A stretch of 64,000 nt of DNA, from the NCBI GenBank assembly GCA_963840035.1, contig CAWIXE010000002.1, forward strand, positions 1,344,001 through 1,408,000. The letters run 5' to 3'. Positions 7,843 to 38,174 of this stretch are shown here, piece after piece (within the stretch, counting starts at the first letter, position 1; every line of letters starts with the position of its first letter). Below the pieces are notes generated by a model. The model saw only the letters and a list, made by a program, of their open reading frames with translations. It ran no database searches and was not told where the DNA came from. The position numbers were made by a program, and so were the translations under genes. Origin of the DNA: a candidate division FCPU426 bacterium. Lineage in GTDB: Bacteria; Oederibacteriota; PGYV01; Palsa-1178.

Positions 7843-7897
7843 TAAGTTCCCATCTTCTGAATATGCGTCTTTACTGGATATCGCTACCAAATTTTTT

Positions 7898-7975
7898 TGG
7901 TAGCGGCGGAGGGAGTCGAACCCCCGACACTACGGGTATGAACCGTATGCTCTAAACCAACTGAGCTACGCCGCC
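7898..7975 (-). tRNA. tRNA-Met (CAT), elongator type
   Basis: GGCGGCGTAGCTCAGTTGGTTTAGAGCATACGG-TTCATAC-CCGTAGTGTCGGGGGTTCGACTCCCTCCGCCGCTACCA; cloverleaf with encoded CCA. Confidence 0.95.
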
Positions 7976-8447
7976 ACTAAAAATTTTTATAATGCCAAAT
8001 TTACTCAGGCTCAGTTCGTCGCCTTAAGGCGACGGTAACTGAGCTCAAATGTTGCGCGAGCCTTCAGGCGAGCGCTCGAAAATCAAAGGTTTACCTTCAT
8101 CTCATTTTGCCGGTTACTACCGGCACGCCGCCACTAAAAATTTTTATAATGCCAAATTTACTCAGGCTCAGTTCGTCGCCTTAAGGCGACGGTAACTGAG
8201 CTCAAATGTTGCGCGAGCCTTCAGGCGAGCGCTCGAAAATCAAAGGTTTACCTTCATCTCATTTTGCCGGTTACTACCGGCACGCCGCCACTAAAAATTT
8301 TTATAATGCCAAATTTACTCAGGCTCAGTTCGTCGCCTTAAGGCGACGGTAACTGAGCTAAAATGTTGTGTTCGCCTCAAGGCGAACACTCGAAGATCAA
8401 AGGTCCACCTTCATCTCATTTTGCCGGCTACTGCCGGCACGACGCCA
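7968..8447 (-). repeat. Three tandem 157-bp multi-hairpin repeats upstream of tRNA-Met
   Basis: ACGCCGCCA recurs at 7968, 8125, 8282 and (variant) 8439. Units 1 and 2 are identical; unit 3 has diverged. Confidence 0.95.
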
Positions 8448-8465
8448 CAACGTTGGCCCCGTTTT

Positions 8466-8560
8466 ACCGTGGCCAGTAGTCGGCCACAACCGACACTGCC
8501 ACAGCGCTGGCTCCACCGTGGCCAGTAGTCGGCTACTGCCGACACTGCCACTGCGCTGGC
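8466..8560. repeat. Two 49-bp-period bulged hairpin repeats (REP-like, contain GTAG)
   Basis: ACCGTGGCCAGTAGTCGGC....CCGACACTGCCAC at 8466 and 8515. Confidence 0.8.
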
Positions 8561-8594: not shown

Positions 8595-8623
8595 TTTATA
8601 ACAAAAACCCAGTTTTTATGCAA
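8595..8623 (-). promoter_or_regulatory. sigma70-type promoter for the repeat leader - tRNA-Met - tilS unit
   Basis: TTGCAT-17 nt-TATAAA on the minus strand. Confidence 0.6.
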
Positions 8624-15275: not shown

Positions 15276-15348
<73 letters not shown>

Positions 15349-25240: not shown

Positions 25241-25317
25241 TGGTCGGGGTGACTGGTCTCGAACCAGCGACCTCTCGCACCCCAAGCGAGTGCGCTAGCC
25301 AACTGCGCTACACCCCG
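25241..25317 (-). tRNA. tRNA-Pro (GGG)
   Basis: CGGGGTGTAGCGCAGTTGGCTAGCGCACTCGC-TTGGGGT-GCGAGAGGTCGCTGGTTCGAGACCAGTCACCCCGACCA. Confidence 0.96.
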
Positions 25318-25323
25318 ACTACA

Positions 25324-25422
25324 TCAATGTATGATTCATCTAAATTCATAATCGTGGTGTGTCCGGGAACGACCATTAATAGAAGATTCCTCTATTTAAT
25401 CGTTCCGGGCTACACCCCGACT
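25324..25422 (-). repeat. ~100-bp tRNA-5'-mimic hairpin unit upstream of tRNA-Pro(GGG)
   Basis: GCTACACCCCGACT (tRNA 5' end) is repeated at 25409-25422; long hairpin at 25351-25420; homologous to the units at 25721-25916. Confidence 0.85.
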
Positions 25423-25638
25423 ATTTCCAACAAGAATAGCAGACAAGAAAACTATCGGAGGCATCAAGTAAAGCACAACCTCGCCTCCACCGTCTCCTAT
25501 CTACTCTCTCCTATCTCATGTTCCTATTTCTTAAGAACAGGTTCTAAACCTAAAAAACAAGGTCAACTTCTCCAGAGAGTAGAGAGGAGAAAGGTGACCG
25601 AGGCTTACGCCTCTGAAAATTTTCGCAAGCGAAAATTT

Positions 25639-25714
25639 TGGTCGGGGCGACTGGATTTGAACCAGCGGCCTCTTGGTCCCGAACCAAGCGCGCTACCAAC
25701 TGCGCTACGCCCCG
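25639..25714 (-). tRNA. tRNA-Pro (CGG)
   Basis: CGGGGCGTAGCGCAGTTGGTAGCGCGCTTGG-TTCGGGA-CCAAGAGGCCGCTGGTTCAAATCCAGTCGCCCCGACCA. Confidence 0.96.
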
Positions 25715-25720
25715 ACTACC

Positions 25721-25916
25721 TTAATGTATGCCTTATCTAAATTCAAAGTCGGGGCGTGTCCGGGAACGACTATTAATAGAAGATTCCTCTATCTCATCGT
25801 TCCGGGCTACGCCTACCGAGCTTAATGTATGCCTTATCTAAATTCAAAGTCGGGGCGTGTCCAGTAAAGGCTATAAATAAATCTTCATTAATCTAACCTT
25901 TACTGGGCTACGCCCC
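25721..25916 (-). repeat. Two ~101-bp tRNA-5'-mimic hairpin units upstream of tRNA-Pro(CGG)
   Basis: TTAATGTATGCCTTATCTAAATTCAAAGTCGGGGCGTGTCC is identical at 25721 and 25822, each followed by a hairpin ending GGGCTACGCC. Confidence 0.88.
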
Positions 25917-25998
25917 AACGCTGACACTTTAATGTTGCCTATTAACGCTTTTAAGAACGTTGATATCCTGACTTTTGTTCCTGTTTCAAAACTTCAAA

Positions 25999-36031: not shown

Positions 36032-36549
36032 AACCGACAAAATCAGAGAAGATATATAAAGGCAGGATATTCGAGCTTAAAAAAGAGACATTCAAGCTTA
36101 AAGGCAATATTATAACAAGAGAGATCATATATCACCCCGGTTCTGCCCTGATGATACCGGTACTGGATGTTAAAAAGAAAACCATAATAATGATAAAGCA
36201 ATACAGGCACGCGGCAGGCGGAGAAATCATTGAGTTCCCTGCCGGCACAAAGGATAAGGGCGAATCATACAGGGCCTGCGCTTCAAGGGAGCTTGTGGAA
36301 GAGATAGGTTATAAACCCCGCAAAGTAAAGGAAATCACAAGGTTTTATCTCGCGCCCGGGACCATGACAGAAATAATGGCCCTTTTCCTGTGCACAAACC
36401 TGAAAAAGCAGGAACAGGACCTTGAAATAGACGAAAAGATAAAGCCGTTCATAACCACAGTGGATGAGGCGGTAAGGATGGTTAAAACAGGTAAAATAAA
36501 GGATGCGAAGACGATATTAGCGGTTTTAATGCTCCGCGATCTATTGTAG
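36028..36549 (+). CDS. NUDIX hydrolase (ADP-ribose pyrophosphatase-like)
   Basis: HPGS, QYRH, EFPAG..DKGE..ACASRELVEEIG Nudix box, IKDAKT. Confidence 0.92.
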   Translation: MKPTKSEKIYKGRIFELKKETFKLKGNIITREIIYHPGSALMIPVLDVKKKTIIMIKQYRHAAGGEIIEFPAGTKDKGESYRACASRELVEEIGYKPRKVKEITRFYLAPGTMTEIMALFLCTNLKKQEQDLEIDEKIKPFITTVDEAVRMVKTGKIKDAKTILAVLMLRDLL

Positions 36550-36576
36550 GGACAGCGCTCCCGCGCTGTCCGCCAG
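36546..36576 (+). repeat. REP element (left copy)
   Basis: GTAG-GGACAGCGC-TCC-CGCGCTGTCC-GCCAG. Confidence 0.92.
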
Positions 36577-36599
36577 TGCTTTGTTCTTACTGCAGCAAA

Positions 36600-37187
36600 T
36601 CATCGGTCCGTCTTCTCTTTCTTGACTTCATCGGTTAATTTCTTATAATAGCCATTTTTATCCAAACCGGACTTATGATTCTCAGCATCTTCCATCCATT
36701 TTGCCGGATTGTTTTTAATGTACTCCCTTACAAAATCAAGCCCATAACTGCCCTTTACAATACTGTCCCAGTAAGATCTCTGCCACTTAAACCCCAACCC
36801 AGCCTGCCTGGTTTTTCTGGTCACAAAACTCTTATATGCCTGAACTATTGCGGGTATGGACCTCGTCCCATCAAAGCGCATATCATTTATCCTTATTAAA
36901 GCGTGAATGTGGTTGGGCATAATAACAAAACAATCTATTTCGATCGTTTCATAATACTTTTGAAGCTCCCCGAATTGGTTGTATGCTATCATACCCCGAT
37001 CATTTAATTTTAATTCCCCGCCGGCGATTTCGCCGAATACACATTCGGCTTTATCAACGCAAGCTGTAATAAAATATGACCCTATTTCCGAGTAATTAAA
37101 TGCGTAAAGACGGTTGCGTTTTCTTTCAGGCATTGGTATTTGGGAATGTGAAATTTGTTTTAAACGTACTGATTCCTTATCCGGCAT
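36600..37187 (-). mobile_element. REP-associated tyrosine transposase (RAYT, IS200/Y1 HUH family)
   Basis: RKRNRL..FNYS..GSYFITAC, FVIMPNHIH (HUH), WQRSYWD, YIKNNP (catalytic Tyr); flanked by inverted GTAG REPs. Confidence 0.92.
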
Positions 37188-37233
37188 TTTTGGATCCCCC
37201 CTACATTTTAAATCAAGTTCTTACCCCGAACAA

Positions 37234-37440
37234 CTGGCGGACAGCGCGGGAGCGCTGTCCCTACAACACAAACCACTGCTGGCGGACAGCGCGGGAGCGC
37301 TGTCCCTACAACACAAACCTGCTGGCGGACAGCGCGGGAGCGCTGTCCCTACAACACAAACCACTGCTGGCGGACAGCGCGGGAGCGCTGTCCCTACAAT
37401 ACAAAACAACTGGCGGACAGCGCGGGAGCGCTGTCCCTAC
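37234..37440 (-). repeat. Array of five identical 31-bp REP elements
   Basis: CTGGCGGACAGCGCGGGAGCGCTGTCCCTAC at 37234, 37279, 37322, 37367 and 37410, with 12-14 nt AC-rich linkers. Confidence 0.96.
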
Positions 37441-38174
37441 AGGAAGAACACTTCCCCTTTTATTACCTTAACCTTGCCTTTGCTGTTTTTTACCTTAACC
37501 GAACCGTTCTTTAAGACTTTATCAACGGTCAAAATGACTGTTTTTCCATTTTTATTCAGCTTGATTTCCCTGCCTTTTATATCACCCTGGCTTTTGACCC
37601 ACCTGGCGACCAAAACCCTCTTATTACCCGGCATCCCTTCCAGGTAGCCGTCTATCCTTTTTAACACCGCTATAAAGAACTTATCCATATCAACTGTGCG
37701 TTTGAGCAGTGTTTTCAGCGATACGGCTTTTATCGCGGAGTCTTTTGGGACTGTATTGTTGACGTTTATACCTATACCGGTTACAAGCGATGAATTGTAG
37801 TGGTCGTTTTCTATGAGCATTCCGCATATCTTTTTTCCGTCAACCAGGATATCGTTCGGCCATTTTACCGTTGCTTTGACCTTCATGGCCTTTAAAGCCT
37901 CGCATACGGCAACAGACGATAAAATGACATACTCATACGGCCTTTTCACTTTTTTATTTATCACAAACGAAAACCACAGGCCGCCTTTTCCCGAAACCCA
38001 CTTTGCCCCATGCTTGCCCCTTCCAGCTGTCTGTTCCGCGGCAACGGCGATGGTCCCTGAGGAAAAAGAGTTGGTTTTAAGGCAGGCGTTTGTGGAGTCA
38101 ATGTTATCAAAGAAAATAATGGAATTTAATACTTTATTTGATTTTACTGCCTGTTTTATGGCGGCTGTGTTCAT
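37437..38174 (-). CDS. birA: Biotin-[acetyl-CoA-carboxylase] ligase (no HTH)
   Basis: DSTN, AEQTAGRGK, KWPNDILV.GKKICGML, GIGINV. Confidence 0.95.
   Translation of the reverse strand: MNTAAIKQAVKSNKVLNSIIFFDNIDSTNACLKTNSFSSGTIAVAAEQTAGRGKHGAKWVSGKGGLWFSFVINKKVKRPYEYVILSSVAVCEALKAMKVKATVKWPNDILVDGKKICGMLIENDHYNSSLVTGIGINVNNTVPKDSAIKAVSLKTLLKRTVDMDKFFIAVLKRIDGYLEGMPGNKRVLVARWVKSQGDIKGREIKLNKNGKTVILTVDKVLKNGSVKVKNSKGKVKVIKGEVFFL

Follow-up and report, generated by a model that had tools for sequence, protein, structure and literature searches.

A 79-nt insert in the repeats upstream of tRNA-Met belongs to an apparently undescribed family of mini insertion elements in an uncultured bacterial order

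Three 157-bp repeats upstream of a tRNA-Met gene each contain a 79-nt insert that recurs in many tRNA copies and hairpin repeats of the same bacterial order. A covariance model of this insert found matches in 17 of the 24 genomes of the order and in none of 75 other genomes of the phylum (strict filters, 48 candidates scored per genome). We conclude that the insert belongs to a real, order-specific and apparently undescribed family of mini insertion elements; a literature search, covering mainly open main texts, found no description of it. Because the insert recurs at so many tRNA copies and hairpin repeats, a mobile DNA element is likelier than a regulatory RNA leader, and we consider it probable that the insert is a non-autonomous element which adopts its fold as single-stranded DNA and depends for its movement on an enzyme encoded elsewhere. 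An earlier note on this DNA, made from the sequence alone, had offered a tRNA-targeting miniature element as one of its readings. tRNA genes are indeed targeted, but the element is the 79-nt insert and not the 157-bp unit. One small element thereby accounts for many odd tRNA neighbourhoods in this uncultured order.

The array upstream of tRNA-Met

The window analysed is the whole stretch of 64,000 nt (G000:C2:1344001-1408000), taken from a three-contig assembly (G000) that is 98% complete with a GC content of 47%. Homologues of its HflX bear the label Candidatus Goldiibacteriota, which suggests the lineage. All features of the array are on the minus strand. An intact tRNA-Met(CAT) gene (7898..7975), which from its features we take to be of the elongator type, is located upstream of tilS, and directly upstream of this tRNA is a tandem array (7968-8448) with a period of 157, 3.1 copies and 95% matches. 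Unit 1 (7976..8132) and unit 2 (8133..8289) are identical in sequence, and unit 3 (8290..8446) carries another insert allele. Each unit is composed of a copy of tRNA nt 1-8 (8125..8132, 8282-8289 and 8439-8446), the 79-nt insert, a copy of tRNA nt 9-17 contained in a fold-back hairpin, H4 (8009..8045, 8166-8202 and 8323-8359), and an AT-rich spacer of 33 nt. The tRNA-like pieces, previously read as separate mimics, are thus the left and right halves of a single interrupted tRNA 5′ end. H4 itself (8009-8044, -24.2 kcal/mol) was correctly noted as an invariant hairpin; it holds a copy and the complement of tRNA nt 10-17 together with the complement of nt 1-7, and so carries anti-D-arm and anti-acceptor segments. 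Unit 3 differs from units 1 and 2 at 15 positions, all of them within the first 87 nt, and the last 70 nt are without change. The compensatory changes that had been noticed between them in hairpins H1 and H3 are present in the sequence.

Further upstream, two decayed 49-bp units (8466..8560), each with a tRNA-5′-like stretch, an H1-only hairpin and a fold-back, are part of the same pile. These are preceded by a sigma70-like promoter motif, TTGCAT-17-TATAAA (8595..8623; TTGCAT at 8623-8618, TATAAA at 8600-8595), so that the three repeats do lie between a promoter motif and the tRNA, as had been reported. The motif is missing from the list of the consensus scanner, but an equivalent precedes tRNA-Met in relatives and, in those that are free of the insert, is situated ~10-20 nt from the tRNA. 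A search of Rfam at gathering level returned only tRNAs in the window, and four element loci gave nothing but weak chance matches. When the unit was compared with the genome by BLAST, only its first half recurred, beside other tRNA genes.

Other repeats are also associated with the tRNA genes of G000. The leaders of tRNA-Pro(CGG) and tRNA-Pro(GGG) (window 25241-25930, minus strand) contain a different unit of ~100 nt, consisting of a copy of tRNA nt 1-10, a long hairpin and a complement of the tRNA 5′ end. This unit is also found at tRNA-Pro(TGG) (G000:C3:181232-181298) and in locus L047, has no match to the insert model, and is probably a second element targeting tRNA 5′ ends. Many tRNA genes of G000 are followed by fold-backs of the type CCA-hairpin-antiCCA (e.g. 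window 7880-7897 and 25615-25638), beyond which lies one of several other repeat families. A perfect heptamer array (window 15276-15348, 10.4 copies of CTCCTGT) has relatives among the heptamer runs close to the 3′ ends of tRNAs, and another purine-rich insert family occupies the T loop of partial tRNA copies at L044:480-760 and L048:400-560. Very GC-rich stretches at contig ends (G000:C3:2500-3000 and C2 near 1701500) look foreign in a 47% GC genome and are possible assembly contamination.

Copies, fold and target sites of the insert

The covariance model was built from 33 seed copies, 21 from G000 and 12 from relatives, and matched 27 sites in G000 at E <= 2e-4, 21 of them the seeds. Thirteen of the 27 are in tRNA copies, 11 in GTAG-type REP hairpins, two in another palindrome family and one elsewhere. 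The tRNA-linked copies are distributed over eight tRNA genes (Met and Gly with three each, Arg with two, and Phe, Thr, Lys, Val and Ala). The insert is not specific to tRNA-Met, as seven other tRNA genes, REPs and palindromes are occupied too.

All copies follow one plan. Hairpin H1 starts from the first base and is followed by a single A, the 5′ strand of a helix P2, a linker that is first purine-rich and then AT-rich, hairpin H3 and, with one more base after it, the 3′ strand of P2. Family members are between 68 and 111 nt in length and contain no genes. P2 is a long-range helix of 5 bp that closes the insert and shows covariation within the family, with variants including AGATG/CATCT, AAACG/CGTTT, AGGCG/CGCCT, AAATG/CATTT and AGCCG/CGGCT. 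In copy 1 of the tRNA-Met array (8046..8124, E 1.2e-13, a seed member), H1 occupies 8124-8109, the 5′ strand of P2 (8107-8103) pairs with its 3′ strand (8051-8047), and H3 (8075-8054) has a TC/TC internal mismatch. Copy 2 lies at 8203..8281. Copy 3 (8360..8438) shares its H1 with the Arg, Gly and Ala copies and has a fully paired H3 like that of the Lys copy. The hairpins described in the earlier note are thus retained as H1, H3 and H4, but the long-range P2 (AAATG/CATTT) had been overlooked. The remaining one, the AAGGT..ACCTT stem in the linker, was dropped as a family feature; it has a loop of 2 nt, and linker stems of at least 4 bp are rarer than expected from shuffling (23/69 copies versus 29.5).

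Two other features were looked for within the insert and rejected. An internal promoter was suggested by eye from TATAAT in some copies, but it is unconserved and absent from the tRNA-Met copies, and inspection revealed no covariation between insert and target of the kind expected of a base-pairing guide. A match to the IHF consensus lies in the linker of copy 1 (8093-8081). Perfect matches are present in 14 of 90 elements, spread over eight genomes, compared with 0.35 in shuffles, and as most copies are without a match this is a lead only. Head-to-tail dimers of the insert with a 1-nt joint were found at two loci. At tRNA-Val(TAC) (L058:441-516, G000:C3:493440-493515) the right end of the element is formed by the tRNA's own nt 1-8, and the 5′ strand of P2 is complementary to tRNA nt 3-7, making P2 and the acceptor stem alternatives. 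In locus L010 another hairpin is nested at the right junction of the element.

Covariation of the paired positions was 0.42 in the seed and 0.54 in the model-aligned copies, in alignments that are fitted to the structure and contain related, non-independent copies. These values were reached by none of 500 shuffles and collapsed in slid controls, and the suggestion of selection on a single-strand structure is thereby upheld. RNAalifold recovers H1 and H3 and misses P2, for which the support consists of pair counts. Among the 57 non-seed copies (837 pair cells), 793 pairs are Watson-Crick, 17 G-T and 10 A-C; for comparison, the tRNA stems of G000 contain 34 G-T in 540 pairs. The TC/TC mismatch of H3 is kept in 46/69 and 22/33 alignment rows, most of the others being fully paired at this position, and on the opposite strand it reads as a tandem G-A mismatch in a C-GA-G context. 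Moreover, GNA triloops are found 24 times on the antisense strand of the 90 elements versus six times on the sense strand, and the sense strand of these elements has no UNCG or GNRA loop. Tandem G-A mismatches and GNA triloops both stabilise DNA hairpins. Near-pure Watson-Crick covariation and DNA-type loop motifs on one strand suggest that the folded form is likely single-stranded DNA, the folding strand being the one that is antisense to most of the tRNA hosts. Template-switch correction of quasi-palindromes can also produce pure Watson-Crick covariation. The case serves as a warning that RNA-like covariation can come from what is probably DNA.

We examined 96 copies of the insert, of which 53 could be mapped on a nearby intact tRNA; the other 43 are in REP or palindrome hosts, in nested or tandem copies, or in tRNA copies that lie at the ends of contigs or in masked sequence. 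The mapped junctions fall at nt 8/9 (22), in the D loop (26) and, in antisense orientation, in the T loop (5). Every one of these 53 junctions follows a T of the target, and any duplication is of at most 1 nt. The flanks of the site classes differ, and this one T is the sole constant. However, the nucleotide now preceding the insert is G, A or C instead of the target T in 21 of the 53 cases, which fits no simple mechanism. Rarer targets are the anticodon loop of a tRNA-Leu and the antisense 3′ end of a 5S rRNA, with one insert each, and a heptamer repeat. A single tRNA-Val(GAC) copy in genome G006 (L102:1306-1578) contains inserts at nt 8/9, in the D loop and in the antisense T loop.

An intact tRNA gene adjoins the insert at all eight tRNA loci of G000. 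Interrupted copies located downstream of the intact gene often have a perfect 3′ part and a decayed 5′ part, whereas upstream copies are truncated after the insert. A tRNA intron of group I or BHB type was considered and rejected, given the antisense copies, the intact neighbours at 8/8 G000 loci and the lack of an Rfam match. Copies that bear the insert yield false tRNA calls; ARAGORN took one of them for a tRNA-Thr and another for an intron-bearing tRNA-Leu. Conversely, a tRNA-Asn at L111:1660-1900 was missed by ARAGORN; it has an element-bearing partial copy upstream, and its anticodon loop is apparently split by a group I-like intron, judging by eye from the motifs.

Distribution, mobility and rival explanations

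The tRNA-Met site is empty in all seven same-family genomes and also in G010, G012 and G018. Inserts do occupy it in G011, G020, G022 and G023, but their alleles are unlike those of G000, whose closest kin are antisense T loop tRNA-Val (G003 and G005), Thr (G003) and Arg (G000) copies. Since the G000 alleles are nearest to copies at other sites, sequence relatedness points to repeated independent insertion at the same tRNA-Met nucleotide. Nearest neighbours share their site class in 53/90 cases (25 expected) and their genome in 28/90 (9 expected), and the excess within site classes suggests that vertical inheritance or same-site conversion explains part of the spread. Eighteen of the 27 G000 copies, or ~14 of 22 independent loci, are oriented along the replication fork, which amounts to no clear bias towards one replication strand. 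A search for the right-end pattern of the insert gave no loci in viral sequences, seven loci in genomes outside the order (four scored, all four chance) and 14 loci in metagenomes, where nine are chance and the other five are full elements, each in a D-loop copy of a tRNA gene. Phages and plasmids gave no blastn match, and as both searches are narrow, diverged relatives might be missed.

No autonomous partner or linked enzyme was found among RAYT, GIY-YIG, IS110, RT, TnpB and DUF559 proteins. Of the eight Y1 genes in G000, five are accompanied by REP arrays of their own, and no strong element match occurs within ~1.5 kb of the eight or of 25 GIY-YIG loci (best E 0.035). Y1_Tnp is absent from 6/17 carriers of the element and present in 4/7 non-carriers, counts in which incomplete MAGs could hide genes. 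G000 has no IS110, RT or TnpB; within the order, 2/24 genomes have RT, 2/24 have TnpB and 13/24 have DUF559, the last without any pattern. No half-elements bracketing an ORF were present in G000, and the ORFs next to insert matches gave no lead to a mobiliser. G000 encodes two small GIY-YIG proteins, and its Ssn-like gene has its own, different repeats. A GTAG-tagged REP array with a 45-bp period in the window (36500-37441), beside a RAYT-like Y1 gene, is an ordinary REPtron.

The structured RNA or processing switch that the earlier note had put forward keeps its covarying structure, but is weakened by the lack of an RNA-type signature in G-U pairs and UNCG or GNRA loops and of any fixed position or orientation relative to one gene. 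Given its position between promoter motif and tRNA, the array would be transcribed as a ~600-nt leader and then removed by RNase P, the RNA gene of which is present in G000. The mimic and anti-tRNA segments could then switch tRNA-Met folding or RNase P processing, whether as the original role of the array or by co-option. Equilibrium folding predicts that acceptor-stem pairing drops from 0.92 for the tRNA alone to 0.00-0.08 with upstream units, placing the cloverleaf 6-12 kcal/mol above the minimum free energy. However, such a model ignores co-transcriptional folding and tertiary structure, and any upstream copy of nt 1-8 would compete in it. The fold-back of the tRNA remnant is likewise a feature of upstream copies (9/25, compared with 0/22 downstream), but 16 of the 25 do without it. 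The same insert also occurs in antisense, downstream of tRNAs and within REPs, and its patchy distribution, with the tRNA-Met site empty in all seven same-family genomes, speaks against a dedicated switch. In the light of the folding model the array may affect tRNA-Met, as a regulator or to its harm, but we regard a regulatory leader as an unlikely account of the repeats.

We consider it still less probable that the insert acts at the RNA level, as a mini-intron, ribozyme or retro-element spliced or reverse-transcribed into tRNA loops. Precise insertion after U without target loss would suit such an element, as would the near-perfect tRNA left on removing the insert from several copies (3′ parts with 0 mismatches in 56 or 68 nt) and the slight excess of sense-strand G-T over A-C (17 versus 10). 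However, the antisense T-loop and 5S insertions, the REP hosts, the intact tRNA beside the insert at all eight G000 tRNA loci and the decayed 5′ parts of broken copies do not fit, Rfam yields no match by gathering threshold or by E-value, RT is scarce in the order and missing from G000, and UNCG and GNRA loops are absent from the sense strand of the 90 elements. Equally improbable in our view is that no dedicated enzyme exists and that a structure which arose once or a few times was spread by replication slippage, template switching and gene conversion between similar tRNA flanks. Several observations are consistent with this: adjacent Gly and Thr copies in G002 carry the same insert; fold-backs and perfect stems are typical of template switching; P2 at tRNA-Val(TAC) has been altered so that it pairs with nt 3-7 of the tRNA itself; and the search for a mobiliser was fruitless. 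Against it stand nucleotide-precise insertion into unrelated targets that have no flank in common, namely U8, the D loop, the antisense T loop, the anticodon loop, two REP families, the 5S end and the heptamer repeat, and a conserved internal mismatch which template switching would erase. That the array is an assembly artefact is hardly credible; despite the identity of units 1 and 2, unit 3 departs from them at 15 sites with paired changes, and G011 and G020 have tandem units at this site too, as have other tRNAs. Any doubt concerns at most the number of units.

A mobile single-stranded DNA element could work as follows. The strand antisense to most tRNA hosts would fold such that H1 stacks on P2 and brings both ends together, and H3 with its tandem G-A mismatch would act as a recognition mark. 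A single-strand nicking-and-joining enzyme would insert the element at a T that lies in a hairpin's loop or at a stem junction, in either strand, and would respond to the shape of the target more than to its sequence. HUH-like chemistry is our best guess for this enzyme, held at somewhat less than even chances and drawn from analogy with IS200/IS605 and TnpA-REP, whose substrates are ssDNA hairpins. If a single-copy tRNA were hit, the insertion would survive only where a local duplication preserved an intact gene, after which the broken copy would decay or fold back, and unequal recombination or rolling-circle-like copying might amplify the unit. The array would then be carried as a long pre-tRNA leader, removed by RNase P and probably a tolerated passenger. 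We suggest only tentatively that this amounts to an unrecognised class of minimal mobile DNA, in which a loop T on either strand is chosen by shape, recurrent tRNA landing sites are duplicated so that the host keeps a working copy, and the enzyme lies outside RAYT, IS200/IS605, IS110, Ssn and RT. If so, it would be a compact, scarless, structure-guided system for ssDNA insertion. Its sharp boundaries, defined fold, near-invariant target T and ~90 natural variants offer a ready substrate for finding the enzyme, which bears on how hairpin repeats that lack genes, such as SMRs and REPINs, move without duplicating their target.

Comparison with known systems

A MITE was considered and rejected, the insert having neither terminal inverted repeats of 15-30 bp nor a target-site duplication. 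Closer in kind are SMR-A and SMR-B of Haloquadratum walsbyi, the mobilisation of which is described as enigmatic; like the insert they are ~80-110 bp long, without genes or target duplication, and inserted into palindromes of other mobile elements (PMC3119063). However, SMRs are archaeal and have prominent terminal inverted repeats, whereas the insert has H1 at one end and, at the other, the 3′ strand of an internal 5-bp helix that varies, and it has a covarying three-helix fold and prefers tRNA loops as well as REPs (PMC3119063). PATEs, which are IS200-IS605 derivatives, resemble the insert in lacking terminal inverted repeats and target duplication, in having hairpins near both ends (PMC3119063), and in being too short to code, with a strand-specific fold consistent with ssDNA chemistry (PMC3119063, PMC3333891). 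In contrast to PATEs, no parent IS605 or TnpB element was found for the insert, there is no fixed target of 4-6 nt and, by inspection, no guide covarying with the target, and the left hairpin starts at the very end (PMC3119063).

IS200/IS605 and TnpA-REP enzymes act on ssDNA hairpins without target duplication and are proposed amplifiers of tandem units (PMC3333891). The insert shares with REPs, BIMEs and REPINs the small hairpin repeat and its tandem amplification and, in some copies, has an IHF-consensus match like that of BIMEs. However, unlike REPs and REPINs handled by RAYTs, it has no GTAG/CGTC tag at the hairpin foot, lies beside no Y1 gene and occurs in six genomes without a Y1 match (PMC3333891, PMC3733652, PMC6006769). 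G000 contains many GTAG REPs, and the insert enters these; it is not itself a REP. The SRM and NTS repeats of Ssn (GIY-YIG) are similarly hairpin repeats of ssDNA on which a small trans-acting enzyme is believed to act, but no insert copy was found beside the 25 GIY-YIG loci examined, and tRNA is never mentioned in the main text on Ssn (PMC11893778).

The TLRs of E. coli (e.g. tyrT), the function of which is mostly unknown, are also tandem repeats in tRNA or rRNA operons that include a piece of a stable-RNA gene; as the earlier note had said, they copy the tRNA's 3′ end, carrying its last 18-19 bp, downstream (PMC8144298). In contrast, members of the insert family split a copied 5′ part or whole gene, the tRNA-Met units copy nt 1-17 upstream, and the insert is also found away from tRNAs (PMC8144298). 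Taken together, these comparisons suggest that the insert works most like the SMRs of Haloquadratum and PATEs, and like REP/BIME, while departing from each in a defining feature.
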